From Bacteroidota bacterium (GTDB lineage: Bacteria; Bacteroidota; Ignavibacteria; UBA10030; UBA8401), in assembly GCA_025355705.1 (NCBI GenBank), contig JANXZD010000411.1, forward strand, positions 1 to 29,137: a DNA stretch of 29,137 nucleotides, given 5' to 3'. Under the pieces are notes generated by a model. That model saw nothing but the letters and a program-made list of their open reading frames with translations, had not been told where the DNA came from and made no database searches. This document shows positions 4,778 through 25,993 of the stretch, piece after piece (within the stretch, counting starts at the first letter, position 1; every line of letters starts with the position of its first letter). A program made the translations under genes and the position numbers.

Positions 4778-4780
4778 ATT

Positions 4781-5344: not shown

Positions 5345-5361
5345 ATGACTGCATTTATCTA

Positions 5362-5389: not shown

Positions 5390-5397
5390 TGGTGTTA

Positions 5398-5426
5398 TTG
5401 CAACCTTTTCCATCGAACCGTATATT
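5398..5426 (+). promoter_or_regulatory. Putative sigma70 promoter (TTGCAA-N17-TATATT) for the 5450 gene
   Basis: TTGCAA at 5398-5403, a 17-nt spacer, TATATT at 5421-5426, and the ATG at 5450. Confidence 0.5.
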
Positions 5427-5449
5427 ATACAAATAATGGTGAACTTACG

Positions 5450-5848: not shown

Positions 5849-5896
5849 ATCTCCCTATAGGATACTAATGAATGGATCCTTCGTCCTTTCATCCAA

Positions 5897-5934
5897 CAAA
5901 AAGGGAATAGCATATCATTCATATTCCCTTTTTG
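5897..5934. terminator. Bidirectional intrinsic terminator
   Basis: Perfect 13-bp inverted repeat CAAAAAGGGAATA / TATTCCCTTTTTG between convergent genes, with A and T tracts on both sides. Confidence 0.8.
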
Positions 5935-5949
5935 ATATAAAAACTCTTA

Positions 5950-6354
5950 TTAATTTTTACGAACTGCGGGATTACTTGATTCAATCATCAGCATTCTTCG
6001 CTTTGGAAAATTCTTTTTATCCTGTAACTGAAATTGCACATCAAAAACAACTTCGGAAGCGCGCTTCTTTCCATAGAACGTTTCCGGTATCCACTTTACT
6101 TTTCGGAGCGTGGATTTAACGGAATTACTAAAAATTCCATAGCCTCCAAAATCTATCGCGGTGACGTTCCCAAGAGAATCAATTTCTACACTTACTCTTG
6201 CAATATCTTCAACTCCGGCGCGGCGTGCCAATTCAGGATAGACGATAAGACTCTTCAATGAATCCCATCCAATCTCCGGCTTTGCTTCTACCAGAGCATC
6301 TTGTGAATAACCAAATGAAACTAACAACAGAATAGAAATGCATAGCGATTTCAT
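5950..6354 (-). CDS. TonB C-terminal domain protein (energy transducer TonB family), short form
   Basis: AAGGAG precedes ATG 6354. The protein reads MKSLCISILLLVSFGYSQD (signal-like), then LIVYPELARRAGVEDIARVSVEIDSLGNV...KVKWIP, a TonB_C pattern. Confidence 0.8.
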   Translation of the reverse strand: MKSLCISILLLVSFGYSQDALVEAKPEIGWDSLKSLIVYPELARRAGVEDIARVSVEIDSLGNVTAIDFGGYGIFSNSVKSTLRKVKWIPETFYGKKRASEVVFDVQFQLQDKKNFPKRRMLMIESSNPAVRKN

Positions 6355-6419
6355 ATAATGCTCCTTGTTAATTGATATACGAATTTCATTGAATTTCCAC
6401 CGAGAGTCAAGCCCTATAA

Positions 6420-7493: not shown

Positions 7494-7649
7494 ATAATGA
7501 CAATAGACGTGTTATGTGAAATACCAATGATTCTTACCTCTTGTTTTATTTAAAACTTATCTCTTCCTATCGTAAAAATCAACACTTTCATTTTCCACTA
7601 GGTACACCTATATTTCGACAAATAAATCTGTTAAATCGAGGAAAAAATC

Positions 7650-8423
7650 ATGGCATACGAGACACTGTTACTCACCAAAGAAAACGGATACGCGCTTATC
7701 CAGATCAATCGCCCTCAGGCATTGAATGCCCTCAACTCACAAGTGCTGATAGATATTTATAATGCACTCTTCGAAATAGATCATGAAGATGAATTCAAGT
7801 GCTCTATTGTAACCGGAAATGAAAAGGCATTTGCTGCCGGAGCTGATATAAAGGAAATGACAGATAAAAACGGGAAACAGATGTTCAATGACAATCAGTT
7901 CGAATCCTTCTACAAAATTCGGACAATCAAAAAACCGATCATTGCCGCCGTCAACGGATTTGCGCTTGGAGGCGGATGTGAACTAGTGATGGCGTGTGAT
8001 ATGATCATTGCAAGCGAAACGGCAAAGTTTGGTCAGCCGGAAATTAATCTTGGTGTGATTCCGGGAATGGGAGGCTCGCAGCGATTAACGCACGCTGTTG
8101 GTAAGTATAGAGCAATGGAATTACTCCTAACCGGAGATATGTTCTCTGCGGAAGATGCATTGAAATGGGGATTGGTAAACAAAGTTGTTCCAAGTGAATT
8201 TTTGGTGGAAGAAGCCAAGTCCCTTGCAAAAAAAATTGCAGGCAAGCCGTTAATGGCAATTCGTGCTGCAAAAGAAATGATCAACAAAGCAGATGACCTT
8301 TCTTTACACGATGGATTGGAATACGAACGCAGAAAATTTGCAGACCTATTCGACACTGAAGACCAAAAAGAAGGAATGAAAGCGTTTGTGGAAAAGCGAA
8401 AAGCGGTTTGGAAGAATAAGTAG
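7650..8423 (+). CDS. Enoyl-CoA hydratase (crotonase superfamily, PaaF/Crt-like)
   Basis: INRPQALNALN, AFAAGADIKEM, and both catalytic Glu motifs of true hydratases (GGGCELVMACD, GQPEINLG). Confidence 0.93.
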   Translation: MAYETLLLTKENGYALIQINRPQALNALNSQVLIDIYNALFEIDHEDEFKCSIVTGNEKAFAAGADIKEMTDKNGKQMFNDNQFESFYKIRTIKKPIIAAVNGFALGGGCELVMACDMIIASETAKFGQPEINLGVIPGMGGSQRLTHAVGKYRAMELLLTGDMFSAEDALKWGLVNKVVPSEFLVEEAKSLAKKIAGKPLMAIRAAKEMINKADDLSLHDGLEYERRKFADLFDTEDQKEGMKAFVEKRKAVWKNK

Positions 8424-8734
8424 TGAAGTCGTTGAGTCGTTGAGTTAATGTGAAAACAATTTTAGCCACAGAGTTCACAGAGAAAATTTAGCAACAAAAC
8501 ATCATTAACAAACTTTAATTGGAACTCTCGTTTTTTTTCTGTATGTTTAAGTGTTGCAAATATGCAACACCGCATCTGAAAATCTAACACTGTCTCAGAA
8601 GCGGATATACGACACGCTTCTCTGATGGCAATTCGCATTAGGATATTCCTTCCGCACACTGCATCCAAAAAGCAGCGAGTCATTTTTTAACACAACATTT
8701 GCCTTACATCAACACTCTGCGACTGTTCTCGTTT

Positions 8735-8760
8735 GAGATTCTTCGCACCGCTCAGAATAA
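8735..8760. repeat. Degenerate REP-like palindromic element
   Basis: GAGATTCTTCGCACCGCTCAGAATAA resembles, from recollection, the intergenic repeat GAGATTCTTCGCTTCGCTCAGAATGAC. Single copy in this window. Confidence 0.4.
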
Positions 8761-8822
8761 GAGTGATTAGTCTGCTTCTGCGCTTTGTTTGCGGCAAATA
8801 ATAAACAAAAGGATCTAAAATA

Positions 8823-10802
8823 ATGGCTTTTCAAGCCCTTGGTCTTAACGACCGACTTGTGCAAGGTATTCTTGCGACCGGGTATTCCACCCCAACAGAA
8901 ATTCAAGCACGTGCAATTCCGCTGGCAGTCGCCGGCAAAGATATTATCGGCAGTGCGCAAACAGGAACAGGTAAAACCGCCGCGTTCACTCTTCCGATCC
9001 TTAACCGCTTAGCGGCACAGACGGAAAAATCGCATCACATTAAAGCGCTTATTCTTACACCAACACGCGAACTTGCGCAACAGATAGAAGATGCCGTAAA
9101 ACAATACGGACGATTTCTTCCTGTGAAAGCTCTTTCAATTTATGGTGGAACAAATATTCAGAATCAGTTAAAACAATTATCACGCGGCGTCGATATTCTT
9201 ATCGCAACGCCCGGACGATTAATCGACCATTTAGAACGCAGAAGCGTCAATCTTTCGCAGGTAGAAGTACTTGTGCTGGATGAAGCGGACAGAATGTTCG
9301 ATATGGGATTCATCGACGATATGCGATTGATCATTAAACAAACACCGGCTACACGGCAGACACTGCTATTTTCTGCAACAATGGGGAAAGAAGTCCGTGC
9401 ATTGGTGAAGAACATCCAAAAAAATCCGGAATTGATCGAAGTTGGTCATCAACGAACACCAGCAACGACAGTAACGCAGCATTTTTATACTGTGAATGAT
9501 GACAAAAAATTGAGCCTTCTTCTTCACATCCTTCAAACGAAAGAATTGGACTGCGTGTTAGTGTTTTCCAAAACGAAAGTCGGAGCTGAACGAGTTTCCA
9601 ATAATCTGCATAAGAACGGCATCAAAGCAATTTCGATCCATTCGGACAGAACGCAGGCACAGCGACAACGCGCACTTGCCGGGTTCAAACAAGGTCAATA
9701 TAAAGTATTGGTTGCAACGGATGTTGCCGCACGCGGAATTGACGTTGAAGGAATTTCGCACGTGGTCAATTATGATATCCCAACCTATGCGGAAGATTAT
9801 ATTCATCGCATCGGACGAACGGGACGAGCGTTATCAACCGGTGATGCAATAACATTTGTTACACGAAGTGAAGCGCGACATGTGAAAAAGATCGAACAGT
9901 TCATCGGAAAGAAATTCGAAATTAAAAAATATCCTGACTTTGATTATAACAAAATAGAAGAAAAGATAGTTAAACAGCCGGGTCAATCAGAAACCGAACA
10001 TCAATCATCCGATGAACCAAATTTCAACAGAGAACATCGAGAGAGCAGAGATCGTTTCAAACGAAATGACCGAGGTACGGATCGACGTTCAAGTTCTGGA
10101 AGCCGTCCGGATCGACGCGAAGGATTTAAACGAGATGATCGTCGAACCGGCAGCAGCGGATTTGGCGGTGGAGAAAAACGAAGTTCCGGTTTTCCAAAAC
10201 GAGATTCGTTTGGCAGCGGAGAACGCAAAGAAAGCGGATACACAAAACGTGAATCATTTGGAGGAGAACGTAAAGAAGGTGGATTTCCACGACGTGAGTC
10301 GTTTGGCGGAGCTCGTAAAGAAGGGGGCTTTCCAAAGCGTGATTCGTTTGGCGGAGGACGCAGAGACGGCGGTTATCCAAAACGTGAAACTTTTGGCGGT
10401 GAACGCAAAGATAACGGATTTGTAAAACGTGAGTCATTTGGTGGCGAACGTAAAGAAGGTGGGTACGCGAAACGAGAATCATTTGGAGGAGAACGTAAAA
10501 CCAGCGGATTCGTAAAACGCGATTCCTTCGGCGGAGAACGTAAACCGGGTGGATTCGTAAAACGAGATTCGTTTGGCGGAAAACGCAGAGAAAGTACTTT
10601 TGGAAAGCGAGATTCATCCGACGTACAGAAACGAGAACATAATTTTGAAAAACGAGAATCATTTACCGAAACAAGAGGTTTTGACCGACCGAAACCGCAC
10701 AGCGGACCGGATTGGAAAACATTGATTCCCGAAGAACGAGAACACAAATCGCGCGATCACAAAGTCGTGCGTAAAATGGTTAGCAGAAAGAAAAAGGATT
10801 AG
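8823..10802 (+). CDS. rhlE: DEAD-box ATP-dependent RNA helicase (RhlE-like) with long repetitive C-terminal tail
   Basis: Q motif (GYSTPTEIQARAIP), motif I (AQTGTGKT), DEAD, SAT and motif VI (HRIGRTGRA), followed by about 290 aa of low-complexity tail. Confidence 0.92.
   Translation: MAFQALGLNDRLVQGILATGYSTPTEIQARAIPLAVAGKDIIGSAQTGTGKTAAFTLPILNRLAAQTEKSHHIKALILTPTRELAQQIEDAVKQYGRFLPVKALSIYGGTNIQNQLKQLSRGVDILIATPGRLIDHLERRSVNLSQVEVLVLDEADRMFDMGFIDDMRLIIKQTPATRQTLLFSATMGKEVRALVKNIQKNPELIEVGHQRTPATTVTQHFYTVNDDKKLSLLLHILQTKELDCVLVFSKTKVGAERVSNNLHKNGIKAISIHSDRTQAQRQRALAGFKQGQYKVLVATDVAARGIDVEGISHVVNYDIPTYAEDYIHRIGRTGRALSTGDAITFVTRSEARHVKKIEQFIGKKFEIKKYPDFDYNKIEEKIVKQPGQSETEHQSSDEPNFNREHRESRDRFKRNDRGTDRRSSSGSRPDRREGFKRDDRRTGSSGFGGGEKRSSGFPKRDSFGSGERKESGYTKRESFGGERKEGGFPRRESFGGARKEGGFPKRDSFGGGRRDGGYPKRETFGGERKDNGFVKRESFGGERKEGGYAKRESFGGERKTSGFVKRDSFGGERKPGGFVKRDSFGGKRRESTFGKRDSSDVQKREHNFEKRESFTETRGFDRPKPHSGPDWKTLIPEEREHKSRDHKVVRKMVSRKKKD
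10197..10664 (+). repeat. In-frame tandem repeat, 45 nt / 15 aa, consensus KRESFGGERKEGGF[PV]
   Basis: One 16-aa unit and nine 15-aa units from aa 459 to aa 609, plus a partial eleventh unit (KRESF). The last two units are degenerate. Confidence 0.92.
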
Positions 10803-10971: not shown

Positions 10972-12585
10972 ATGGCCGACAAGTATAGATTTAAAAGACA
11001 CGATTCCATCGGGGCTGCTGCAGCTGAAGAAGATCATAAATTTTTGACAGAATGTTTTATCGATAATGGTGATTTGAGTGTTTTATTGGACTGTAAGAAT
11101 ACAAAACGTGTCATTGTTGGCAGAACCGGATCCGGCAAAACGGCACTAATACAACAGCTTCTAAAACGAAATAATGTTATTGAAATCCTACCAGAAAGTC
11201 TTTCTTTTAATTTTTTATCAAACTCTGGCGTATTAAGATTCTTTCTTGACGCAGGTGTTAAGCTTGATTTGTTTTTTAAACTCTTATGGAGACACGTTTT
11301 CACAGTTGAATTACTAAAACGTAAATATCATATAACTAACGAGAATGCAAAGAAAACATATCTTGAAAGCCTAAAAAGTATTTTCAACAAAGATAAAAAT
11401 AAAGAAAAAGCAATCGAATATCTTCTAAAGTGGGGAGGTAAATTTTTCGAAGAAACAGAGTATAGAATTAAAGAAATCACAAACAAACTTGAAGATGAAT
11501 TAAAAGGAAGTATGGATTTAAAAAGGACACCAATTGAATTTGGTATCTCATCGGCTTCAAAACTTACTGAAGAGCAAAAAATTGATGTTGTTCAGCGTGG
11601 ACAATCTGTAATAAACAATATACAGATGAAGGAACTTGGGGAAATACTAAGTTTTCTTGATGAAGATGTTTTCGACGATCAACAAGAACATTTTTATATA
11701 TGTATAGATAGATTAGACGAAAATTGGATTGATGATCGATTTAGATATTTATTGATCAGAAGTTTGATTGAAACCGTCAAAGATTTTTATAAGGTAAAAA
11801 ATGTGAAAATATTTGTTGCGCTAAGAACTGATTTATTAGAAAGGGTATTTAGATTAACCAGAGATCCTGGCTTTCAAGAAGAAAAATATAGATCGTTTTA
11901 TTTACAATTGAATTGGCAAAATTCTATGCTGTCAGAATTACTTGATAAACGAGTGAATCTATTAATACGTTCTCAATACACACAAAGTGGTGTTACTGCA
12001 AAAGATATTTTGCCTTCAAAAATTGATGGAGATCCTTCGTTAAACTATATGATTCGAAGAACTCTTATGAGACCTCGAGAGTTAATAGAATTTTTTAACA
12101 CTTGTATCGAGTACGGTCATGGTAAGGCAACTTTTACTAAAGAGATTATATTAAGATCTGAAGGAGAATATTCAAAAAATAGATTGCGAAGCCTGCAAGA
12201 CGAATGGATATCAGACTATCCCTCTTTAATTGATTTCACTTCAATAATACGAAAACAAAATAGAAACTTTAAAGTTCGGATGTTAGATGAAGAAGCAATA
12301 GAAGCTTTTGCATTAAATTATGCAACTGTAAATTCTGATAAAACTGATTTTCTCTCAACTAATGCGAGAGGTTTTGCTGAAGCTAACATTAATCTTGAAA
12401 ACTTTCTTGCAGGTGTTTTTCAGGTATTCTACAAAACAGGTATCGTTGGTATAAAAACTGAATCATATGATTCCGTACAATGGTCTCACAATGGTGTTAT
12501 AACTATTGCAGCGCAAAACATAGACTTCAATACAACAATTTCAATACACCCAACCTTTCACAGAGTATTAGGCATAAAATCATGA
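10972..12585 (+). CDS. Stand-alone P-loop ATPase (resembles Sll1717/FunZ-like, STAND-related ATPases)
   Basis: 537 aa. Walker A IVGRTGSGKT, Walker B YICIDRLDENW, then RRTLMRPRELIEFFN and a C-terminal YKTGIVG...IHPTFHRVLG. GAGGGA precedes the ATG. The family label is from recollection. Confidence 0.75.
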   Translation: MADKYRFKRHDSIGAAAAEEDHKFLTECFIDNGDLSVLLDCKNTKRVIVGRTGSGKTALIQQLLKRNNVIEILPESLSFNFLSNSGVLRFFLDAGVKLDLFFKLLWRHVFTVELLKRKYHITNENAKKTYLESLKSIFNKDKNKEKAIEYLLKWGGKFFEETEYRIKEITNKLEDELKGSMDLKRTPIEFGISSASKLTEEQKIDVVQRGQSVINNIQMKELGEILSFLDEDVFDDQQEHFYICIDRLDENWIDDRFRYLLIRSLIETVKDFYKVKNVKIFVALRTDLLERVFRLTRDPGFQEEKYRSFYLQLNWQNSMLSELLDKRVNLLIRSQYTQSGVTAKDILPSKIDGDPSLNYMIRRTLMRPRELIEFFNTCIEYGHGKATFTKEIILRSEGEYSKNRLRSLQDEWISDYPSLIDFTSIIRKQNRNFKVRMLDEEAIEAFALNYATVNSDKTDFLSTNARGFAEANINLENFLAGVFQVFYKTGIVGIKTESYDSVQWSHNGVITIAAQNIDFNTTISIHPTFHRVLGIKS

Positions 12586-15478: not shown

Positions 15479-16123
15479 ATGCAACGATTCATTATTTTCT
15501 TTACCGCTTTTCCGTTCTTCTTCTCCGCACTTGTTGCCCAGAAAAATCCGCAGATTGAATTATCAACATCATTTCCATTCCACGCATTTCAAAGTTCGTC
15601 ACGGGATTATTTTCTCACAACAAAATATTCAGCGGGAGTTTCATTTACCATCAATGACTACGCTGATTTCATCTCGACAATAACCTATACGCAGCAAAAT
15701 GCGATTATGACACAGGTTCCATCATACAGAACCGGTGCTTTGGTCGATTCCAGAACAATTTTTGTTCCATTTACTTCCGATCCATTCTTTTCCGAATATG
15801 GAGTATTCACCGGAGTACGATTGACAACGAGTCAAAACTTTGCACAGGTGTTTGTGAAAGGACAAATTGGAGTGCTTGACGCAAAATATGGAACGATACA
15901 AAGTGTTCCATATTTGAATCCCAACGACCTTCCCGGCGGATATTCTTATCGAGATGTTGAAGGTGATGTGATGAAAATCCAGATCGCTGGAATGTATGGT
16001 GCCGGATTGATGCTGCATCCGACCGCATCATTGACATTCGTCGTTGACCTCCATGCAATCAATCGTTTCACAAATCAACCGCTTGATGTTTACAGAAGCG
16101 TTGGTGTGCAATTCGGGATGTAA
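15479..16123 (+). CDS. Hypothetical outer-membrane beta-barrel protein
   Basis: AGGAGG RBS and a signal peptide ending ALVA|Q. Alternating strands include GVFTGVRL, VFVKGQIGV, YGAGLML and VGVQF. Confidence 0.7.
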   Translation: MQRFIIFFTAFPFFFSALVAQKNPQIELSTSFPFHAFQSSSRDYFLTTKYSAGVSFTINDYADFISTITYTQQNAIMTQVPSYRTGALVDSRTIFVPFTSDPFFSEYGVFTGVRLTTSQNFAQVFVKGQIGVLDAKYGTIQSVPYLNPNDLPGGYSYRDVEGDVMKIQIAGMYGAGLMLHPTASLTFVVDLHAINRFTNQPLDVYRSVGVQFGM

Positions 16124-16135
16124 ATCATCCGATAA

Positions 16136-17380
16136 ATGAAAAAGCTACTGCTCATATTATTGTTCATCAACTCACAGGCATTCTCACAAGCCGGAAGCAG
16201 TGCCGTTCCATTTCTTCTCATATCTACTTCTGTTGAAGCAAATGGGATGGGCGGGATAATGACTGTGGCGAATTCGTCAAGTCCTTCATCAATGATGTTC
16301 AATCCCGCACAACTTGGCATGAGCAGCCAAACCGATTTTTTTAGCACAGAAATGTATTCCCACAAAACATTATGGCTGCCGCAATTTAGATTACATGATC
16401 TTTGGATCAATAATTATTCCATGATGTATGGAATGAAACTGCCTACGACAAATAACTCACTGATCAGCGTTGGTTTTGGATACTCACGTTTATTTTTGAA
16501 TCTCGGAAGGTTTATTGTTACCACCGAAAATAGCCCCGACCCGATTGCTAACTTTGATGGGTACGAAACCAGCGACAATTTTAGTATCGGTGTCAGTGTT
16601 GATCTCGGTATCACTGTGGCATTCGGCACGACAATAAAAAAAATCACATCAAACCTCAGCCCAATCGGAACCGCGCAAGAAAAAACTTCGGGCGGTGCAA
16701 ATGTTTGGGCTTCAGATCTCGGCTTATTAATTAAAATTCCGGTGATGCGTTTTATCTTTATGGATGAAGAATTTAAGGGAAAAACTCTTTTACCTTTTTT
16801 TGATATAACTGCAGCGCATGCGTTAAATAATCTTGGCAGCCGTGTCGTCTATATTGATCCTGCACAATCAGATCCGTTACCGCGAACTGCGCGCTTAGGA
16901 TGGTCGATTGAAGCCGGATTAAAATTTCAAACAGACAAATTCAATGTCTCTTTAATCAATTTAACAGTCGCTCGAGAGGCTGAAAATTTATTATTTAAAC
17001 GGGATAATATCGGAAATTGGGAATACTATGGCGCACCATTAGGGAACATTGATATCTATAAGAATCTTATTGCAAGCGAAGCTAATGGCTACGTCACTGT
17101 ACGAAGAGGGTTTTCTGCCAATTTTTTTGAAACGATAACATTTCGACAAGGTTCGTACGAAGGAGACGGGAATCTTTCCTATACGACAACAGGTTATACG
17201 ATCAGTACAAGTGGAATTTTAAAATATTTCAAATCTACCATGCCTATTAGTTCAGACTTTAATCCAGTTCAATTCTTATTGTCTCATTTTGAAATTAGAT
17301 TTAGTCATAGTGAATATACAGGGCATACTCTCTTAGATGGAACGGGATTCGATAATCTTATATTTTCATTCCGCCATTAA
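16136..17380 (+). CDS. porV: PorV/PorQ family outer-membrane protein (type IX secretion associated)
   Basis: Signal peptide ending AFS|Q, then AGSSAVPFLLISTSVEANGMGG, FNPAQLG and DPLPRTARLG. Confidence 0.75.
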   Translation: MKKLLLILLFINSQAFSQAGSSAVPFLLISTSVEANGMGGIMTVANSSSPSSMMFNPAQLGMSSQTDFFSTEMYSHKTLWLPQFRLHDLWINNYSMMYGMKLPTTNNSLISVGFGYSRLFLNLGRFIVTTENSPDPIANFDGYETSDNFSIGVSVDLGITVAFGTTIKKITSNLSPIGTAQEKTSGGANVWASDLGLLIKIPVMRFIFMDEEFKGKTLLPFFDITAAHALNNLGSRVVYIDPAQSDPLPRTARLGWSIEAGLKFQTDKFNVSLINLTVAREAENLLFKRDNIGNWEYYGAPLGNIDIYKNLIASEANGYVTVRRGFSANFFETITFRQGSYEGDGNLSYTTTGYTISTSGILKYFKSTMPISSDFNPVQFLLSHFEIRFSHSEYTGHTLLDGTGFDNLIFSFRH

Positions 17381-17419
17381 AATCTATACCGTAACTTTCA
17401 GAATTTCCGAGTTATTATC

Positions 17420-17457
17420 AAACAACAATCCCGTCTTTAAAGACGGGATTGTTGTTT
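17420..17457. terminator. 38-bp perfect palindrome, probable bidirectional terminator
   Basis: AAACAACAATCCCGTCTTT|AAAGACGGGATTGTTGTTT between convergent porV-like and hydA genes. Confidence 0.75.
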
Positions 17458-17469
17458 TTGCATAGCCAT

Positions 17470-19296
17470 CTATACATGAATTGGAGCTTTCAATTCCTTC
17501 TTTTCTTTCCCGTTCGTTTTCCAAACAAACAGTCCACGTTGTTGATACGATGTATGAAGTAAGTGATGCGACATTTCCCCGAGTGGTTCTTTCAGAAATT
17601 CACTGTACAACGCAGCAACGTTTGGATTTTCGTGCGATTTACGGAGAGGCTTGTTTGCATCCTCGGCGTAGATCGATTCCGCGCGTTTCTTTCTGATCTC
17701 CATCGTTGTGGGAATCGGCTGACCGCCGCCGCCAAGACATCCGCCGGGACAGGTCATTACTTCGATAAATGCGTACGGTGATTCCCCTTTTTCTATCTGT
17801 TCCATCAACGTACGAGCATTCTTTAAAGTATGCGCGACTGCTACTTTCACTTTCATTCCGTTCAAATCCACTTCTGCTTCTTTGATTCCATCCATTCCCC
17901 GAACTGCTGTGAAGTTTATATTAGCAAGAGGACTTCCGGTAATCACTTCGTAGGCTGTGCGCAATGCCGCTTCCATCACACCGCCGGTTGCTCCGAAGAT
18001 AACGGCTGCACCGGTCGATTCACCAAGCGGACTATCGAATTCTTCTGACGGCAATGACGAGAATCGTATTCCTGTCTCTTTGAACATTCGCGCCAATTCT
18101 CTTGTCGTCAGGACATAATCGACATCGTAAAATGTATCCTCACTCGACCACGCCCGTTTGTCTTTCCAGTAATCGAACGCACCCATCATTTCGGGACGAC
18201 GCGCTTCATATTTTTTGGCGGTACACGGCATTACTGAAACGACAACGATCTTCCTCGGGTCTATTCCCATCTTTGCGGCGTAGTATGTTTTTGCAACGGT
18301 TCCGAACATCTGTTGAGGAGATTTGCAGGAAGAAAGATGACCGAGCAGATCGGGGAAGAAATGTTCAGCAAATTTTATCCAGCCCGGCGAGCAGGAAGTG
18401 ATCATCGGGAGTTTTCCTTTGTTCTTAATCCTGTCAATCAATTCATATCCTTCTTCAAGGATTGTAAGATCTGCCGTGAACTGAGTATCGAAGATTTTCT
18501 TAAAGCCAAGTTTGCGAAGACCTGCAACCATTTGTCCCGTCACCAAACTTCCCGGACCCATTCCCATTGCCTCTCCGATGCCGACACGGATCGCCGGCGC
18601 AGTCTGTACGATAACATATTTATCGGGATTGGATATTTCTTCAAAAACATTGTCCGTATCGTCGCGTTCGACGATAGCGCCAGTGGGACAGACAAGAGCA
18701 CACTGACCACAATACGTGCAGGCAACATTGCCAAGACCTTTTTCCATATATGTGGAAATTTTGGACTTGATACCGCGACCAGAAATTCCTATCGCAGAAA
18801 CAGTCTGCACATTCTGACAGACAGCAATGCATCGTCCGCACAAGATACATTTGTTCGGATCGCGATGAATGGAGATAGAACTTGTATCACATTTTTGAAT
18901 CTTCTTTGTCCGGACATACCGATCTTCTTTCACACCGAGATCGGCAGCAAGTGACTGCAGTTCGCAATTTTGGTTGCGCAGGCAGGAAAGACAATCCTTC
19001 GGATGGTTCGCCAACAGAAGTTCAACACTCGTTTTCCGTGCGTCGCGAATTCGGGCAGAGTTCGTTACAATTTCCATTCCCTCATATACACAGGCAGTGC
19101 ATGAGCGAAGAAGAGATTTCGCTCCTTTTACTTCAACAACGCAGACCGCACATGACGCATTTTTTGAAACATCTTCCATATAACAAAGCGTCGGAACTTT
19201 AATACCGGCTCGCTTACACGCATCAAGTATCGTTGCGTTCTGCGAAGCCTGATGATTATCACCATTGATTTTGATATTGACCATTGTCGTATTCAT
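17470..19296 (-). CDS. hydA: [FeFe]-hydrogenase catalytic subunit, group A, M3-type (HydA/HndD-like)
   Basis: H-cluster motifs TSCSPGW, MPCTAKKYE and EVMTCPGGCLGGGGQP. N-terminal [2Fe-2S] Cys, His-ligated cluster (HPKDCLSCLRNQNC) and two ferredoxin motifs (CILCGRCIAVC, CTYCGQCALVCP). Confidence 0.96.
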   Translation of the reverse strand: MNTTMVNIKINGDNHQASQNATILDACKRAGIKVPTLCYMEDVSKNASCAVCVVEVKGAKSLLRSCTACVYEGMEIVTNSARIRDARKTSVELLLANHPKDCLSCLRNQNCELQSLAADLGVKEDRYVRTKKIQKCDTSSISIHRDPNKCILCGRCIAVCQNVQTVSAIGISGRGIKSKISTYMEKGLGNVACTYCGQCALVCPTGAIVERDDTDNVFEEISNPDKYVIVQTAPAIRVGIGEAMGMGPGSLVTGQMVAGLRKLGFKKIFDTQFTADLTILEEGYELIDRIKNKGKLPMITSCSPGWIKFAEHFFPDLLGHLSSCKSPQQMFGTVAKTYYAAKMGIDPRKIVVVSVMPCTAKKYEARRPEMMGAFDYWKDKRAWSSEDTFYDVDYVLTTRELARMFKETGIRFSSLPSEEFDSPLGESTGAAVIFGATGGVMEAALRTAYEVITGSPLANINFTAVRGMDGIKEAEVDLNGMKVKVAVAHTLKNARTLMEQIEKGESPYAFIEVMTCPGGCLGGGGQPIPTTMEIRKKRAESIYAEDANKPLRKSHENPNVAALYSEFLKEPLGEMSHHLLHTSYQQRGLFVWKTNGKEKKELKAPIHV

Positions 19297-19305
19297 TAAG
19301 GCTCC

Positions 19306-22300
19306 TTACTGATCGTTAAATTCATTGCATTTGACATCACAGCGCAAGCATCGAGTTGCTTCCAACAACGCTTCCTCACCGGTGTATCCGGCAAGCACTT
19401 CTTGAAAACTCGAAACACGCTCCTTGACAGAAACTTTTTTCGGTTCGATCATCTTTGCTTCTTCCGGCTCCAGTTCCACTTCATCCTTGTATTTGAATTC
19501 CCTGAACAACCTATGGAATCGTTTCTCTTTCATCAGATCGTTATCGATCGCTTCAGCAGCCTTGCGCGCGATTCCCATCGCTTCGGCAACTGTTGCGGGA
19601 CCGGTCACTGCATCTCCACCAGCATAGACATTCGGAAGATTCGTCCTACAACTTGACTGGTTAATCTTCACCGTGCCGTTCTTTCGGAGTTCCAATCCTG
19701 CTTCTTTCGCTGCATCAAATTCCACCTTCTCTCCGATTGCAAGAATGACATTGTTACATGGAATGATTTCTTTCTCCATGGTTTCGATCGGTTTTTTCCT
19801 ACCGGAACTATCAAAACCATCGAATTTCATTTTAATGATCTCAAGTCCCGTCACTTTATCGTTATGGTCACCAATGATCCGATACGGAGCTGACATGAAC
19901 ATGAAACGGATATTCTCATCCAAAGCATCTTTTATCTCGTGCTCATTCGCCGGCATCTCATCGCGGTCGCGTCGATAGACAATAGTCACATCGGAACCGT
20001 TGCGAAGGACTGAACGAGCTGCATCAATCGCGACATTCCCTGCACCGACGACTACTACTTTTTTGCCGACACGGAGCCGTCCACCAATTGCAAGATCTTC
20101 AAGGAATTCATATCCCTGCAGAACACCGTCGAGTTGATTCCCTTCGATGTGCAGTTCTATATCTTTTTGTGCACCAACTGCGACAAAGAGAGCATCATTT
20201 TGTTTCTGCAACATTTTAAAAGAAAAATCTTTTCCAATACGCATATTGAACACGAACTTAATTCCGAGTTTCTTGAACAGTTCAAGTTCTTTGTTGACAA
20301 CATCTTTGGGCAAACGATAAGCGGGAATACCGTATTGAAGTATTCCGCCAGCGCGTGCGTGACTGTCATAGACTATAACGGAATGACCGAGTCGAACAAG
20401 ATAAAACGCTGCAGTTAGTCCCGCAGGACCCGCGCCAACAATTGCAATCTTCTTTCCGGTCGGAGAAAGTTTCTCTCGTATCAATCTTTGATAAATCTCT
20501 TTTTCTTTTCCCATCTTATAGATCGTGTCAGCAAGGTAACGATGGATCTCGCCTTGATTGACCGGATCGTCAACCATATCTCTTCGGCATCGCATCTGAC
20601 AGTGGAAATAACAAATACGACCTACCGTTCCAGGAAGAGGATTATCTCGCAGGGTCAGTTCAAAAGCTTCTTCAATTCTTCCTTCTTTCAATAATTGCAG
20701 ATAGCCTGGAATATTCATGTGCAGTGGACAACTGTTCTCGCACAATGCCATAAAGAGATTCTCACAAACACCAGCTTTGCATCTTTTTTCAATAATGTGT
20801 TTCTCATACTCATCACGGAAATATCGCAGCGTACTCAACACCGGATTCGAACTTGTCTGACCCAATCCGCAAAGTGAAGAATCTCTGATCACGTATGACA
20901 ATCGTTCAAGTGTATCAAGATCTTCCATCGTGCCATCACCGTGAGTAATTTTATTCAAAATCGCAAGTGATTGTGATAAACCTTCGCGACATGGCGTACA
21001 TTTTCCGCATGATTCTGAAGCGGTTACCTCAATAAAATACCGTGCAACATCCACCATGCAATTATCCTGATCCATCACCACCATACCACCCGAACCCATT
21101 ATCGTTCCAAGCTTCGAAAGCGACTCGTAATCAACCGGTGTATTGAAATGTTCAACCGGAATACATCCGCCGGAAGGTCCCCCTGTCTGCACAGCTCGTA
21201 TCTTCTTTTTGGTTCCAGTTCCTTCACCCATCTGATAGATGATCGTTTCAAGAGTTGTTCCAAGCGGTAATTCAACGAGTCCCGTATTTTTTATTTTACC
21301 GACCAGCGAGAATACTTTTGTTCCCGTACTGTTCTGAGTACCGAATTTCGCAAATGCATCTCCGCCTATCGCAACAATCACCGGAACGTTGAACCACGTT
21401 TCAACATTGTTAATGTTCGTCGGCTTTCCCCATAGTCCTTTTTGAGCAGGGTATGGAGGACGCGGAATCGGTCTGCCGGCTCTTCCTTCAATGGATGCGA
21501 TCAACGCAGTCTCTTCACCACAGACAAACGCTCCGGCTCCTTCAACGTATGACAGATCAAACGAAAATTCCGAACCAAAAATATTTTCCCCAAGAAATCC
21601 ATACTCTTTTGCTACCGCAACTGCTTTTTTGAAACGCTCCACCGCAAGCGGATATTCTGCACGCACATACATAATTCCTTCGGATGCCCCCATCACATAC
21701 GCGCCGATCAGCATTCCTTCGATCAGTGAATGCGGATCACTTTCGATCTCGTTCCGGTTCATATACGCGCCGGGATCCCCTTCGTCGGCATTACAGATGA
21801 TGTACTTCTGTCCGGTCTCAACTTTCTTCATCATTTCCCATTTAATCGCAGTGGGAAATCCTGCGCCTCCCCGTCCGCGAAGCTTTGCTTTTTTAATTTC
21901 ATCAAGAACAGAATCTCTCGTCATGCTCGTCAAGGCTTTCATCAACGATGAATAACCACCAACAGCAATGTATTCCTCGATGTCTTCAGGATCGATCAAA
22001 CCCGATTCGCGCAGAACAATTTTTTTCTGTCCTTTAAAGAACGGAAGTTCATTCCACAATGGAACACTCACTAGTCCCGTTCCAAATTCAATTTTAGATG
22101 TAAAAAAATCCCACTTCTCTATTTTACACAATGCTTTCTTAAGCGGCATCAATCCTTTTGAAAGGCTCTGCACAATGTTCTCAGCATCTTTTGTCGTCAC
22201 TTTACGCAGTATCACAAGAGGCATTCCGGGTATGTAACAGTTCACCAACACTTCTTCGGCACAGAATCCAAAACATCCGGTCATCGAAAGTCGTATCGCA

Positions 22301-22467
22301 ACATTCTTTGCTTTGATTGTTTTTTGCAATGCTTCAAAAACTTCCTTCGCACCGTTTCCAATACCGCACGTTCCCATCCCGACAGATATTTTGGGGATAT
22401 CAGGAAGAAGTTTCTTCAAGCCGTTTTGTCTCATCACTTCCCATGTTGAAGCATCAATGGTTTTCAT
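19306..22467 (-). CDS. hydB: HydB/NuoF-like diaphorase subunit fused to a GltD/NfnB-like FAD/NADP(H) oxidoreductase
   Basis: About aa 1-570: thioredoxin-like domain, LRGRGGAGFPT, CNADEGDPGAYMNR, GGPSGG and ESCGKCTPCREG. About aa 570-1053: CENSCP, GRICYFHCQMRC, IVGAGPAGLTAA, YGIPAYRLP, VVGAGNVAIDAAR, VYRR and YAGGD. Confidence 0.93.
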   Translation of the reverse strand: MKTIDASTWEVMRQNGLKKLLPDIPKISVGMGTCGIGNGAKEVFEALQKTIKAKNVAIRLSMTGCFGFCAEEVLVNCYIPGMPLVILRKVTTKDAENIVQSLSKGLMPLKKALCKIEKWDFFTSKIEFGTGLVSVPLWNELPFFKGQKKIVLRESGLIDPEDIEEYIAVGGYSSLMKALTSMTRDSVLDEIKKAKLRGRGGAGFPTAIKWEMMKKVETGQKYIICNADEGDPGAYMNRNEIESDPHSLIEGMLIGAYVMGASEGIMYVRAEYPLAVERFKKAVAVAKEYGFLGENIFGSEFSFDLSYVEGAGAFVCGEETALIASIEGRAGRPIPRPPYPAQKGLWGKPTNINNVETWFNVPVIVAIGGDAFAKFGTQNSTGTKVFSLVGKIKNTGLVELPLGTTLETIIYQMGEGTGTKKKIRAVQTGGPSGGCIPVEHFNTPVDYESLSKLGTIMGSGGMVVMDQDNCMVDVARYFIEVTASESCGKCTPCREGLSQSLAILNKITHGDGTMEDLDTLERLSYVIRDSSLCGLGQTSSNPVLSTLRYFRDEYEKHIIEKRCKAGVCENLFMALCENSCPLHMNIPGYLQLLKEGRIEEAFELTLRDNPLPGTVGRICYFHCQMRCRRDMVDDPVNQGEIHRYLADTIYKMGKEKEIYQRLIREKLSPTGKKIAIVGAGPAGLTAAFYLVRLGHSVIVYDSHARAGGILQYGIPAYRLPKDVVNKELELFKKLGIKFVFNMRIGKDFSFKMLQKQNDALFVAVGAQKDIELHIEGNQLDGVLQGYEFLEDLAIGGRLRVGKKVVVVGAGNVAIDAARSVLRNGSDVTIVYRRDRDEMPANEHEIKDALDENIRFMFMSAPYRIIGDHNDKVTGLEIIKMKFDGFDSSGRKKPIETMEKEIIPCNNVILAIGEKVEFDAAKEAGLELRKNGTVKINQSSCRTNLPNVYAGGDAVTGPATVAEAMGIARKAAEAIDNDLMKEKRFHRLFREFKYKDEVELEPEEAKMIEPKKVSVKERVSSFQEVLAGYTGEEALLEATRCLRCDVKCNEFNDQ

Positions 22468-22984
22468 GGATTTTCCTCACTTTCGAAATTCGACGCACAA
22501 GCATTTGTAATTTGGACGCCGTCACATTGCTATAAATAATTCCGTCGATGGCAATAACTGGTGCGAGTGCGCATTGACCGAAACACGCTACCGTTGTAAT
22601 CGTGAATTGATTGTCCGGTGTCGTGAAGAACGACTCACCCTCATCCAATTCTTTCTTACAGTTCAAAATCAAACCAAGATCATCCAATAATGTGCGAGAA
22701 CCTTTCGTGTGGCAAGCAGTTCCGCGGCAAACGGTAATGGTATGTTTCCCCTGCGGCTTGAGATTGAAGAATGAATAGAAGGTAACCACGTTATAGACTC
22801 TGGAAAGAGGAACACCCGTTCTGAGTGCCACATGGTTCAATGCGTCTTCGGAAAGAAATTTATGTTCGTTGAGAATTTGGGACTCTTCGAGAATGCCCAA
22901 GAGTTCTCCATGTTTCCCTTTGTATCGTGAGATTACAGCATCGATCTCCTGCATCTCTTGCGACAACGTACGTGATCCATCCAT
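22454..22984 (-). CDS. hydC: HydC/NuoE-like [2Fe-2S] subunit
   Basis: VVTFYSFF, TVCRGTACH and ACFGQCALAPV. AAGGAG precedes the ATG; 14-nt overlap with hydB. Confidence 0.93.
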   Translation of the reverse strand: MDGSRTLSQEMQEIDAVISRYKGKHGELLGILEESQILNEHKFLSEDALNHVALRTGVPLSRVYNVVTFYSFFNLKPQGKHTITVCRGTACHTKGSRTLLDDLGLILNCKKELDEGESFFTTPDNQFTITTVACFGQCALAPVIAIDGIIYSNVTASKLQMLVRRISKVRKIHENH

Positions 22985-23531
22985 AATTGCTCCTTTTCAA
23001 ATTGAAAATTATCTGTCTACTAATAAAACCACACTCATAAAAACGCGAAAACATATTCTGTCATTTAAAAACGTTAGAGCACTCCATTATCATTTACATG
23101 ATCATCGTTGAAGACCATACTGTAACCATCTCGGGAAGACATAAACACTTTCTGTACCCGGAGCACATAGGGAAGTTGAGCGGCGATATTTTCGCACTAA
23201 AAAATATGTTGCAGCGTGCGGAGTTGATGGGAGATTATTTTGGAGGAACTACACTTTGAATTTATTTGTACCGTTACAGCTTACCGTTGAATGAATTATG
23301 CTAAAATAAATTTTTTCATCTCAGTTGTTCACAAAAAATATCCAGCAAGTAACGAGTTCCTTCAAATACTATGACGTCGCTTAACTATCGGAAATGCCAA
23401 AAAGCACATGTGAAATATAAAGAAGTATTTCCTGAAAAACAGTATTAGAATACTCATTTAAAAAAATATTTTCATAATCAAGACACGTTTGTATTTTTTC
23501 TAAAATAAAAAAATATTTATTGAGGTTGCAA

Positions 23532-23560
23532 TTGCTAACCGACTAATGTTTAACTAAATT
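23532..23560 (+). promoter_or_regulatory. Putative sigma70 promoter upstream of the TonB-dependent receptor (TTGCTA-N17-TAAATT)
   Basis: Spacing counted directly. The region is AT-rich, so a chance match is possible. Confidence 0.35.
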
Positions 23561-23596
23561 TTTGTCATCAATTAATTACCTCAAAACATTTTTCAA

Positions 23597-25993
23597 TTGG
23601 TATCTTTTCCAAGAATAATTTTCTCTTTCATCACCAACGCTGCTTCTACTGTTTGCAGTTCTTTGAATCCCCATCGTAAAAAAAAATATGCAACTGTTCA
23701 ACAGTACAACGTTTATATTTTCTACGTTTTTATTCTCATATCAATTTCCTCTGCCCAAACTGTTTTAATTAACGGTTACATTATCGATGCAAACTCAAAC
23801 TCACCAATTTCGCATTCCATAATTCTTTTGAATGAAACCGGAGAGAAGAAAAGCAGCGACGAGCGAGGATATTTTCAGTTCGAAGTCCATACAATCGGCA
23901 GTTATACTTTATCTATTCATCATATTGCTTATAAGGATGCCGAACGGAAGATCATTGTCAATATTCTTTCTCCAGACACAATTATTATCGCTCTCCAGCC
24001 AAAAATATTCCAATCGGACGGTATCATCGTCAACAGTACCCGCACTGAGTCAGATGTGAACTGCACTCCATTTCCATTGAATGTTGCATCAAGCGAACAA
24101 CTTTTACGACAAAGCAACACAACAATTTCAGATGCACTGAAAAACTCTCCCGGACTTTCAATTGTCCGCGACGGTACGTGGGAAACTGCTATTTCAATCC
24201 GTGGAATGAGCCGTTCAAATATCGTTATGCTTGTGGATAATTCAAGGATTGAAACGGCGAACGATATTGCCGGCGCACTTTCTCTTATAAACACTCATGA
24301 TTTGGAAAGAATTGAAACAATCCGTTCTTCGGGTGCGGCGCTTTATGGAACAGGAGCTTTGGGCGGCATTATTCATTTATTGACAAAACGCGCTACATTC
24401 ACTGATAAATTCCAAATAAGTAGTGAATTGAGCAGTGAGTTCTCAAGCGTGAACAATTGCGCATCGCAATATCTTGCAGTGGTGGGATCCTCAGAACAAT
24501 ATGCGGGAAGATTTAGCAGCGGTTACCGGAAGGCAGACAATACATCGACTCCAACAGGAGTGCTTCCTAATTCACAATTTGCTGATTTTAACGTTACCGG
24601 CTCACTCAAAATAAAGACATTTGAAAACCAAGTTCTCCATCTTTCATATCAACGATCTCAGGCAGAAAATACTGGAATTTCCGGAGGCGCGCCCATTTCT
24701 GCATCGGCTTTAGCAACATATAAACTTGCACAACGTGAGTTTTTCGGACTTGATTATTCAGTCCCAAATATTTCTCCGACTCTTTCATTTATTACGGTTC
24801 GGATTTCTCAACAAAATATTTCCCGCAATGTTGAGATCGTTCAAACTCCGACATTGACTCTGACACCTCATGCAATTCACTCAACATCGAGCGCTCAGGT
24901 TGAATCAAAAATTACCGCATCAGAAAATAACTTTCTTGTTCTCGGCGCAGAGGTCTGGCAAAGAACATTGGAGAGCAAGCGTGAAAAGCTCAACAAAGCA
25001 AATAACACGATCACCGGTGAACATCCGATTCCACACTCCAAGTTTCTTTCTGCAGGATTGTATGGACAGAATGAATGGTATGTTGTGCCAAACAAAGTCA
25101 CGGTAATACTCGGAGCACGATATGATTGGATCCATATCAGCAATGATGAAACGACCAATCCGGAATATATCATCAGCAATGGAGTTCTTAGTACCGCACC
25201 AGCAAACCAGATAATTTTATGGAAGAGTGGAACCACAAAGGATGAATCGTGGAGTGGAAATACAGGAATACAATATTCATTGCTTTCAAATCTGGATGTA
25301 AATTTTCTTGCATCAACTGCATTTCGTTCGCCTTCACTGGAAGAGCGTTATCAATATCTGACTCTCGGAGACGGTATTCATGTAGGAAATCCAAATCTTA
25401 AACCGGAGCAAAGCATAAGCATTAATACGGGATTCCGATGGCATACGGACGGAACAAATATCCGGACAGATTTTTTTCTCAACCAATTGACGAACCTTGT
25501 TACAGACATCCCGGGAACATTTGAAGGGAACGCCGCATTCATCAAACAGAATATCAGTGAAGCTCGATTGTACGGATATGAAATTTCTGGTGAGCAATCA
25601 TTTACTTCGTGGGCAACAATGAATATTTCGGTTTCTTATGTTCGGGGAGAGGATACGCACAACAATATTAATCTTTCTCAGATTGCGCCTCTTCATGGGA
25701 ACGTGGAATTAACAGTTCGAAACCACGATACTGGAAAGTTATCATTTTCTTTGTCAATGAGTGCGCCTCAGGAGTTCATTGGTGCAGGAGAAAAACGAAC
25801 ATCCGGTTTTGCTGTTTTTGATATTGATGCGGTTTCTATTCCAATTCAATTCGATCAGTTTTCTATTACGATCCGCGGCGGGATTCAAAATATTTTTAAC
25901 AAAGAATATCGCAATCATCTTTCTACTATCCGCGGTAATATTACATCGGAACCGGGGAGGAATTTTTTTCTTACAATAGGAGTTGCAGTTTAG
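23597..25993 (+). CDS. TonB-dependent receptor with N-terminal carboxypeptidase-regulatory-like domain; start codon uncertain
   Basis: INGYIIDANSNSPI...SDERGYF, plug motifs (ISIRGM, IVMLVDN, ERIETIRSSGAALYGTGALGGII), FRSPSLEERY, GNPNLKPE and the C-terminal EPGRNFFLTIGVAV. Confidence 0.88.
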   Translation: MVSFPRIIFSFITNAASTVCSSLNPHRKKKYATVQQYNVYIFYVFILISISSAQTVLINGYIIDANSNSPISHSIILLNETGEKKSSDERGYFQFEVHTIGSYTLSIHHIAYKDAERKIIVNILSPDTIIIALQPKIFQSDGIIVNSTRTESDVNCTPFPLNVASSEQLLRQSNTTISDALKNSPGLSIVRDGTWETAISIRGMSRSNIVMLVDNSRIETANDIAGALSLINTHDLERIETIRSSGAALYGTGALGGIIHLLTKRATFTDKFQISSELSSEFSSVNNCASQYLAVVGSSEQYAGRFSSGYRKADNTSTPTGVLPNSQFADFNVTGSLKIKTFENQVLHLSYQRSQAENTGISGGAPISASALATYKLAQREFFGLDYSVPNISPTLSFITVRISQQNISRNVEIVQTPTLTLTPHAIHSTSSAQVESKITASENNFLVLGAEVWQRTLESKREKLNKANNTITGEHPIPHSKFLSAGLYGQNEWYVVPNKVTVILGARYDWIHISNDETTNPEYIISNGVLSTAPANQIILWKSGTTKDESWSGNTGIQYSLLSNLDVNFLASTAFRSPSLEERYQYLTLGDGIHVGNPNLKPEQSISINTGFRWHTDGTNIRTDFFLNQLTNLVTDIPGTFEGNAAFIKQNISEARLYGYEISGEQSFTSWATMNISVSYVRGEDTHNNINLSQIAPLHGNVELTVRNHDTGKLSFSLSMSAPQEFIGAGEKRTSGFAVFDIDAVSIPIQFDQFSITIRGGIQNIFNKEYRNHLSTIRGNITSEPGRNFFLTIGVAV

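Follow-up and report, generated by a model that had tools for sequence, protein, structure and literature searches.

A predicted HydABC-type [FeFe]-hydrogenase whose B subunit carries a GltD-type NADPH/FAD module in place of the ferredoxin domain

In electron-bifurcating enzymes of the Bfu type, mid-potential electrons travel through the Fe-S chain of the A subunit to the B1/FMN site, where NAD+ is reduced at the FMN, and low-potential electrons exit via the mobile C1 cluster to the B3/B4 clusters and on to ferredoxin (PMC11829005; PMC12018979). In the HydABC hydrogenases of A. woodii (7q4v), T. kivui (8a6t) and T. maritima (7p5h), which use ferredoxin, HydB ends with a ferredoxin-like 2x[4Fe-4S] domain. 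Here we describe a locus on contig JANXZD010000411.1 (assembly GCA_025355705.1; the whole 29,137-nucleotide stretch that was analysed is called the window) that shares with these enzymes the three subunits, HydA, HydC and HydB up to the Zn hinge, but whose HydB is a hydB::gltD fusion with an NADPH/FAD module where the canonical enzymes have the ferredoxin-like domain. The architecture is not new, having been published from sequences in 2018, when an enlarged HydB of this kind was noted in Vallitalea guaymasensis L81 (PMC6163223), and again in 2024, when Zheng and Huang named it 'sub-type I BfuABC' and postulated a second, FAD-based bifurcation centre (PMC11406978). In sub-type I the B3/B4 domain is replaced by a DPD_II two-cluster region and a C-terminal FAD/NAD(P) domain, HydA is of the M3a type, and a Ser occupies the fifth P1 position. 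The window locus appears to belong there, as its fusion has Fer4_20 and Pyr_redox_2 domains and its HydA has the corresponding domain set and the sequence TSCSPGW. Nothing architectural sets it apart; what distinguishes the window member is its origin in an Ignavibacteria-like order in which HydE, HydF and HydG were not detected, and a His at the proximal cluster. The initial annotation of this DNA, made from the sequence alone, had allowed that the architecture might not be unique, and had taken such fusions to be known with little biochemistry. Both expectations hold: a literature search for a purified or assayed NuoF::GltD hydrogenase returned sequence-level mentions only, with a paper on the T. 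thermosaccharolyticum hydrogenases and a preprint on syntrophic acetate oxidisers outside its coverage.

Existing classifications accommodate the design unevenly. By the HydDB rule, group A2 requires a GltD neighbour 'but not NuoF', and group A3 has a neighbour with a NuoF domain (PMC5037454). The wording for A2 implies that neighbours with both GltD and NuoF had been seen. Because the protein next to hydA has both domains, the hydrogenase falls into group A3 by this rule. A survey of Bfu enzymes chose its B subunits by the IPR017896 ferredoxin domain (PMC9304861), so that proteins like the fusion were probably excluded from it.

The three genes are tightly packed on the minus strand in the order hydC, hydB::gltD, hydA (Table 1). 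The end of hydC overlaps the start of the fusion by 14 nt, and hydA starts 9 nt past the fusion stop. HydC matches PF01257 at 6e-39, and among solved structures it is closest to Csac NfnC (9bov_C), T. maritima HydC and T. kivui HydC, with the C subunit of NiFe-HydABCSL also a top match; it is predicted to be a BfuC-type subunit with the C1 [2Fe-2S] cluster. The fusion open reading frame (ORF) is uninterrupted over its whole length. It is not an assembly artefact, because 114 full-length homologues share every cofactor ligand and 80 species-representative loci carry the fusion. We regard it as confirmed, on the evidence of gene content and order, that this is a genuine three-gene HydABC-type [FeFe]-hydrogenase operon, as the initial annotation had proposed (hydC by PF01257, hydA by Fe_hyd_lg_C and NF040763). 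A scan of positions 17200-23650 for promoters and terminators found 17 promoter-like sites against 12.2 +/- 3.2 in shuffled sequence, and terminators below expectation, so that neither signal stood out clearly from the controls. The sequencing runs that contain the stretch are DNA only, from sediment and groundwater metagenomes, with no RNA run among them.

The operon design is widespread and occurs across several phyla. More than 120 protein clusters of at least 62% identity cover the full length of the fusion. In a survey of GTDB contigs, with one genome per species, the best 80 loci came from Ignavibacteria-like lineages, Ca. Kryptoniota, FCPU426, Spirochaetota and Bacteroidales (mostly Paludibacter). 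In nearly all of these 80, wherever the contig permits, hydC lies directly upstream and hydA directly downstream of the fusion. The same operon is found with a distant family (P0134) whose module is 39% identical and has Lys at position 642.

The N-terminal half of the fusion resembles the B subunits of bifurcating enzymes throughout. In a search against solved structures, residues 23-573 matched Bfu B subunits, with bit scores of 655 for Tsib NfnB (9n5u_B), 649 for NiFe-HydB (7t2r_B), 612 for Csac NfnB (9bov_B) and 597 for S. ovata StnB (8oh5_B); the HydB chains of A. woodii, T. kivui and T. maritima scored 579-534. The NuoF-type core is about 52-55% identical to solved BfuB chains, and its ligands are invariant in the 114 homologues. 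At the B5 site, Cys34, Cys65 and Cys69 occur in all 114 homologues and Cys114 in 112 of them; the sequence does not distinguish a Zn site from a [2Fe-2S] cluster here. In the B2 hinge (H557-IIEKR-C563-KAGV-C568), C470, H557, C563 and C568 align residue for residue with C437, H524, C529 and C534 of Tsib NfnB, for which the ligand assignment is known; the hinge His occurs in virtually all Bfu B subunits and is absent from non-bifurcating homologues (PMC12018979). The hinge ligands are invariant in the 114 homologues and also in the distant families P0126 and P0134. The fusion is therefore predicted to have the NuoF-type FMN/NAD(H) site with B1, the B2 hinge and the N-terminal B5 domain, and by alignment and model it appears to keep all the marks of a bifurcating B subunit up to and including the Zn hinge.

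Past the hinge the resemblance to HydB ends. The Pfam domains of the fusion are Complex1_51K (191-362), NADH_4Fe-4S (473-557), Fer4_20 (564-652) and Pyr_redox_2 (673-965). A Pfam scan of the 1053 aa found no Fer4-type ferredoxin domain, and a regular-expression search of the whole protein found no CxxCxxCxxxC, the only CxxCxxC being the B1 motif at residue 487. By these searches the fusion appears to lack the B3/B4 ferredoxin-like domain of Bfu enzymes, whose two CX2CX2CX3CP motifs form the ferredoxin outlet. Instead, a second flavoprotein begins at about residue 572-576 (nt ~20750), its first ligand only 8 residues past the last hinge cysteine. The initial annotation had described a 1053-aa subunit with a HydB-like N-terminal part, no ferredoxin motif after the NuoF core, and a second flavoprotein with FAD and NADP-type sites starting near position 20750; the ORF, the domain models that it had asked for, the alignments and the fold all agree with that description, and the motifs it had named (GAGPAG, YGIPAYRLP, GAGNVA and YRR) lie where it had placed them, YGIPAYRLP at residues 712-720.

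The relationships of the module were judged by ranked similarity to solved chains. Residues 575-1045 match the GltD-like inserts of the A subunits of NfnABC and StnABC, with Csac 9bov_A (residues 104-567) best at an E value of 5e-109, followed by Tsib 9n5u_A and Sov 8oh5_C, the alignments spanning the whole module; the inserts range from 5e-109 to 2e-94, and NfnL/NfnB score lower. The cluster sites were assigned by alignment to the Csac and Sov structures, on the basis of the ligands described for Csac NfnA (PMC11829005) and Sov StnC (PMC10482914). The distal cluster would be held by Cys576, Cys627, Cys1040 and Cys1043, and the proximal cluster by Cys580, Cys619, Cys623 and His642; the aligned residues of Csac NfnA are C104/C108/C147/C151/C155 and K170. 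In StnC/NfnA the non-Cys ligand of the proximal cluster is Lys (Lys170), and NfnL has Glu there. All 114 close homologues share His642, whereas family P0134 has Lys. The FAD motif (GAGPAG) and the NADPH motifs (GAGNVA ... VYRRDRDEMPA; YRRxxxEMPA) have aligned counterparts in the NADPH modules of Csac NfnA, Tsib NfnA and Pfu NfnL, with G808, G810, N811, Y831, R832 and R833 invariant. In the 114 full-length homologues the cluster ligands of the module are all invariant, and in a 44-sequence alignment reaching down to 44% identity position 642 alone varies, being His or Lys. The dN/dS ratio is 0.02-0.03 for all four modules. These observations, together with an AlphaFold2 model of the fusion (pLDDT 81.7, pTM 0.71) whose N-terminal half matches Csac and Tsib NfnB (Foldseek TMt 0.86-0.95) and whose C-terminal half matches NfnL 5jca_L (TMt 0.81), indicate that a complete GltD-type module, with two predicted [4Fe-4S] sites, an FAD site and an NADPH-type dinucleotide site, stands in place of the B3/B4 domain.

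As in StnC and NfnA, the module appears to be circularly permuted relative to NfnL and GltD. The motif that opens NfnL, 'EAxRCLxC' (RCLxC), is found at the C-terminus of the fusion (C1040 and C1043), and 'C576-ENS-C580-P' opens the module. The alignment to NfnL pairs residues 1011-1046 with 13-48, and that to Csac NfnA extends to its residue 567. In this C-terminal linker Cys1040 and Cys1043 are conserved, and the pLDDT is low in the cofactor-free model. The initial annotation had called the module GltD/NfnB-like. That it is of GltD type stands, but its closest relatives are the StnC/NfnA inserts, and NfnB/NfnL are more distant. The analogy that had been drawn to the bifurcating FAD of NfnB is accordingly weak, since the modules of StnC and NfnA, which share the permutation, have an FAD shown not to bifurcate (PMC10482914). 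Experiments have established modules of this kind as entry ports for NADPH, connected through two clusters (PMC10482914; PMC11829005). Fusions of the same permuted module to thiamine pyrophosphate enzymes, OYE, DHODH and HdrA/MvhD-type proteins also occur, which fits a portable NADPH port. Its nearest relatives outside the fusions are proteins of ~1000-1250 aa with the module at ~101-575, that is, A subunits of the StnC/NfnA type.

Despite these affinities, the locus does not appear to belong to any of the neighbouring enzyme families. Nfn-Bfu/StnABC enzymes (Csac 9bov, Tsib 9n5u, S. ovata 8oh5) are the best solved matches of both halves (655-597 bits for the B subunits) and share the circular permutation and a non-Cys ligand position at the proximal cluster. 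However, in them the module is an insertion in a NuoG-like A subunit, where it feeds the mid-potential branch, Lys170 serves as the ligand, there is no H-cluster, and the B subunit keeps its ferredoxin domain. In the window B carries the module at its C-terminus, the Lys170 position is taken by His642, and the A subunit is predicted to be a true HydA. NfnAB (NfnSL; P. furiosus 5jca, T. maritima 4ylf) shares the GltD fold, two [4Fe-4S] clusters, FAD and the NADPH site of its large subunit (TMt 0.81), but the fusion has the permuted Cys motif and His for Glu at the proximal cluster, and the operon has no NfnS gene; the fusion would thus not be an NfnAB enzyme, and a separate NfnAB-like pair is encoded elsewhere in the genome. 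The non-bifurcating NADH-dependent HydAB(C) enzymes of S. wolfei and S. aciditrophicus also lack the B3/B4 ferredoxin domain. Unlike the fusion, however, their HydB lacks the B2 and B5 sites and the second flavoprotein as well, and the presence of predicted B2 and B5 sites argues against placing the window enzyme among them.

HydA has the M3-type arrangement of an N-terminal [2Fe-2S] domain (Fer2_4), a NuoG-type His-ligated [4Fe-4S], a 2x[4Fe-4S] region, the H-domain and a small-subunit-like tail. It matches Fe_hyd_lg_C at 2.6e-99 and NCBIfam NF040763 with 878 bits against a cutoff of 765. Among solved structures it is closest to T. kivui HydA1, HDCR HydA2 and A. woodii HydA1, with 433-398 bits for T. 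kivui and A. woodii HydA1. The H-cluster motifs TSCSPGW (L1, residue 300), MPCTAKKYE (L2, 356) and EVMTCPGGCLGGGGQP (L3, 512) are all present, as predicted for an [FeFe] hydrogenase. In the related loci L1 and L2 occur in 67 of 67 and L3 in 61 of 67, the rest being unmatched by the pattern. The Ser for the second Cys of L1 might be taken for a defective H-cluster site; this was rejected, as A. woodii HydA1 (7q4v_A) has the identical motif. A Cys-to-Ser change in L1 is also known from T. tengcongensis and I. album, and a Ser there is common in four of the five Bfu sub-types (PMC11406978).

Table 1. Predicted genes of the operon and predicted segments of the fusion, in window coordinates
Feature	Position	Strand	Description
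hydC (BfuC)	22454-22984	minus	176 aa; predicted thioredoxin-like [2Fe-2S] subunit; C1 cluster Cys 86, 91, 134, 138
hydB::gltD fusion	19306-22467	minus	1053 aa; predicted BfuB with NADPH/FAD module replacing the ferredoxin domain
N-terminal thioredoxin-like domain with B5 site	22093-22401	minus	aligns to the N-terminal domains of Tsib, Csac and Sov NfnB/StnB
NuoF-type core	20797-21987	minus	predicted FMN/NAD(H) site GRGGAGFP 198-205, ADEGDPGAY 227-235; B1 [4Fe-4S] Cys487, 490, 493, 533
B2 zinc-hinge segment	20764-20799	minus	H557-x5-C563-x4-C568; fourth ligand Cys470
Two-cluster region, GltD type	20512-20778	minus	PF14691 6.8e-21
FAD and NADP(H) Rossmann folds	19528-20451	minus	PF07992 1.4e-33; GAGPAG 678-683, GAGNVA 808-813, YRR 831-833
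C-terminal linker ending in EATRCLRCDVKC	19309-19527	minus	permuted N-terminal Cys motif of GltD/NfnL
hydA	17470-19296	minus	608 aa; predicted [FeFe]-hydrogenase catalytic subunit

The genome that encodes this operon is a sediment metagenome-assembled genome (MAG) of 89% completeness, and hydA is its sole [FeFe] hydA. None of the maturases HydE, HydF and HydG was found in this 89%-complete MAG (no match to HydG TIGR03955, none over the cutoff to HydF TIGR03918). The same holds for the order: a hidden Markov model (HMM) search found HydG and HydE over the cutoff in 0 of 121 same-order genomes, 119 of them at least 90% complete, and a real HydG protein from an FCPU426 carrier of the operon, used as the query, gave no match in the 121. 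In a search of four closed genomes of the order HydF was likewise not found, although the FCPU426 control contains it; the controls of the maturase searches were positive. The operon itself is not rare there, orthologous hydCBA being carried by ~22 of the 121. Outside the order HydG was found in all six carriers tested. In the class it occurs in 19 of 201 genomes, all from other orders, and Ignavibacterium album has been reported with hydEFG. The three maturases that accompany a competent [FeFe] hydrogenase thus appear to be missing from this order, HydF on the evidence of the window's own genome and the four closed ones. Nevertheless, the H-domain does not appear to be decaying in the maturase-less clade. 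Mean pairwise identity in this clade is 83% for the H-domain vs 76% for the Fe-S domain. Of 165 columns invariant in maturase-positive lineages, 126 are also invariant in the maturase-less clade; in nearly all of the rest the difference is a gap or is confined to between one and a few sequences (no more than 7 of 37). The dN/dS of hydA in this clade is ~0.03 (0.02-0.03), which indicates strong purifying selection. Archaea and eukaryotes that lack the maturases make active [FeFe] hydrogenases, and an alternative route of maturation has been suggested for them (PMC11216029); this bacterial order parallels those cases.

The features above suggest how electrons could move through the complex. Because the module starts 8 residues past the hinge, its two clusters would stand topologically where canonical enzymes have B3/B4, with FAD and NADP(H) beyond them in place of ferredoxin. 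NADP(H) would exchange hydride with the FAD of the module, and electrons would then pass from the FAD to the proximal (3Cys+His) cluster, the distal cluster and the [2Fe-2S] cluster of HydC, and on to the FMN/B1 site, which binds NAD(H). From B1 they would reach the H-cluster through the Fe-S chain of HydA. The overall reaction would be NADH + NADPH + 2 H+ <-> 2 H2 + NAD+ + NADP+, without ferredoxin, and the oxidation of the lower-potential NADPH pool would help to pull that of NADH. The physiological potentials are -280 mV for NADH and -380 mV for NADPH (PMC9304861). By our own Nernst arithmetic the H2 ceiling is ~3 Pa for NADH alone, ~7 kPa for NADPH alone and ~150 Pa for the coupled pair.

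Most likely, judging from the domains and ligands, the complex is an H2:NAD(P) enzyme with two nicotinamide ports, in which NADP(H) has taken the branch normally leading to ferredoxin; we infer further that the reactions may be energetically coupled. Since the Bfu-specific hinge, the B5 domain and BfuC are retained, it can be argued that the flavobicluster machinery is still in use, in a coupled confurcation of NADH and NADPH. Characterised non-bifurcating HydB homologues lack the B2-B5 sites (PMC9304861). The full reading, of a cytoplasmic HydABC (Bfu-type, HydDB group A3) of the 'sub-type I' design that has NADP(H) on the former ferredoxin branch and couples NADH and NADPH to H2, has in our estimate an even chance of being right. 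Several points weigh against it. The wiring from the distal cluster of the module to C1 is assumed from topology only, the gap of ~100 mV between the NADH and NADPH pools is small for bifurcation, and each H2 half-reaction is feasible alone under some conditions, so that coupling is not required. The literature search found no biochemical or structural data for any member of the design. As HydE, HydF and HydG were not found in the order, H2 catalysis there is only predicted. Finally, a genome with PFOR and an NfnAB-like pair must reoxidise its ferredoxin somewhere. Ferredoxin-independent H2 formation from NADH and NADPH through the Bfu flavobicluster, taken together with H-cluster assembly without HydE, HydF and HydG in this order, is doubtful.

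The coupling is the step on which the nearest competing explanation differs. The FMN/NAD(H) and FAD/NADP(H) sites could act independently on one Fe-S wire, without con- or bifurcation, making the enzyme an uncoupled two-port NAD(P)H-dependent hydrogenase with incidental transhydrogenase activity. The plain NADPH-port behaviour of the FAD in the closest solved modules (PMC10482914), the existence of non-bifurcating NADH-dependent HydAB(C) enzymes (PMC7311640) and the lack of any thermodynamic need for coupling at low H2 all speak for such an arrangement. It remains a minority possibility, if one to be taken seriously, since non-bifurcating HydB proteins are without B2-B5 (PMC9304861), yet the fusion keeps the B2 hinge, the B5 domain and BfuC, all of them invariant. 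A different view would retain ferredoxin as a substrate, bound at the N-terminal clusters of HydA or at the interface of HydC and the GltD module, or would make the FAD a second bifurcation centre, giving an enzyme of four substrates (H2, NAD, NADP and ferredoxin). An FAD centre has been raised for sub-type I BfuABC (PMC11406978), the NifJ-type PFOR of the genome makes reduced ferredoxin, and RnfD was not found in the MAG, which at 89% completeness is not evidence of absence. However, the B3/B4 domain, which is part of the only ferredoxin site seen experimentally (PMC12018979), is absent, the FAD has no NfnS-like partner that would give it another way out, the proximal cluster has His as a ligand and not the Glu of NfnL, and the genome encodes, apart from this operon, an NfnAB-like pair and a [NiFe] hydrogenase candidate. 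We therefore consider this improbable.

The maturase gap bears on another alternative, that no H2 is turned over in this order. HydA, holding only the [4Fe-4S] subcluster, would then be an Fe-S scaffold, and the complex an NADH:NADP+ transhydrogenase-like or other redox module. The absence of HydG and HydE from all 121 genomes, and of HydF from the window's own genome and the four closed ones, is what such a role would predict, and sibling operons (L088 and L089, below) pair the fusion with Fe-S-only 'A' subunits that lack the H-domain. Yet the H-domain is the better conserved half of HydA and retains essentially every column that does not vary in maturase-positive lineages, strong purifying selection acts on hydA, L1-L3 are intact, and maturase-less archaea and eukaryotes have active [FeFe] hydrogenases (PMC11216029); a loss of H2 turnover is on balance quite improbable. 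GltD-family modules are promiscuous, and the module might instead serve a non-nicotinamide reaction, such as sulfur/polysulfide or Fe(III) reduction in the manner of its SudA, NsoC and SfrB relatives, or feed a GltB-like partner, given that a paralogous fusion in the same order adjoins a Glu_synthase-domain protein. With no such partner in the operon or the window and with the NADPH-site motifs invariant, this would be very surprising. Taken as a whole, the interpretation offered by the initial annotation is partly supported.

Related operons show the fusion in other company. The paralogous NuoF::GltD fusion at L089 (G030:C4:772000-785000; genes 2660-8999, minus strand) is 1062 aa long and 43-47% identical, and fusions of this type occur in ~10 of the 121 genomes of the order. 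Its operon encodes a NuoE-like protein, a 225-aa Fe-S subunit equivalent to just the N-terminal module of HydA, and a Glu_synthase-domain (PF01645) protein of 526 aa; no H-domain is encoded. At L088 (GCA_030643555.1, DAOWLF010000102.1, 506-5697) a fusion of family P0126 (49% module identity, His at 642) lies with a NuoE-like protein, a 132-aa ORF and a protein of 403 aa, which over residues 176-382 shares 40% identity with HydA 5-210. As the 403-aa protein has no H-domain, this appears to be an H-cluster-free version of the complex. L090 (G030:C8:113000-125000), in the maturase-less order, is a cluster with a 444-aa group-C-like protein (Fer4, a weak Fe_hyd_lg_C and PF04060). Its other members are PHP-domain, NuoE-like and NuoF-like (610 aa) proteins and an Fe-S protein of 587 aa that lacks an H-domain.

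Other redox genes of the window's genome include the NifJ-type PFOR (1883 bits), the NfnAB-like pair (289 + 481 aa; L081, G000:C489), a lone 445-aa GltD-like protein adjoining an aminotransferase, GltBD, and the candidate [NiFe] hydrogenase large subunit; apart from G000:C489 of the pair, these extra genes lie at L082 (G000:C513), L083 (G000:C187), G000:C214 and G000:C88. The genes neighbouring the operon were searched for maturases and conserved accessory genes, and only PFK, outer-membrane-like proteins, a TonB receptor and EamA were found. In the window, convergent with hydA, are two plus-strand ORFs (15479-17380) of 214 and 414 aa with no Pfam match, which resemble secreted or outer-membrane beta-rich proteins and are conserved in the closest relatives only (5 loci). 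Farther away, a 537-aa ORF (10972-12585, plus strand), also with no Pfam match, is found where the window is richest in AT (GC 0.34 vs ~0.41); an earlier reading of the sequence had flagged it as a possible inserted P-loop ATPase. The same reading noted repeat structure in the ~320-aa C-terminal extension that follows the core of a DEAD-box helicase (DEAD + Helicase_C; 8823-10802, plus strand).

The Bfu type is the least understood class of electron-bifurcating enzymes, and its low-potential branch has been seen ending only at ferredoxin. A natural and widespread variant that ends in NADPH/FAD offers a ready test of whether the FMN/B1/C1 flavobicluster can drive a two-electron acceptor, and of what sets the direction of the branches. 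The maturase-less order, in turn, provides a bacterial case for the question of HydEFG-independent maturation, with many closed genomes for phylogenetic profiling. If H-cluster assembly there is indeed maturase-free, it would extend to bacteria the 'alternative maturation pathway' proposed for archaea and some eukaryotes. Coupled formation of H2 from NADH and NADPH, if true, would be a reaction type not yet demonstrated. The carriers are abundant anaerobes of sediment and gut (Ignavibacteria-like lineages, Paludibacter, Spirochaetota), and in them, if our reading is true, the H2 pool would be tied directly to both nicotinamide pools.

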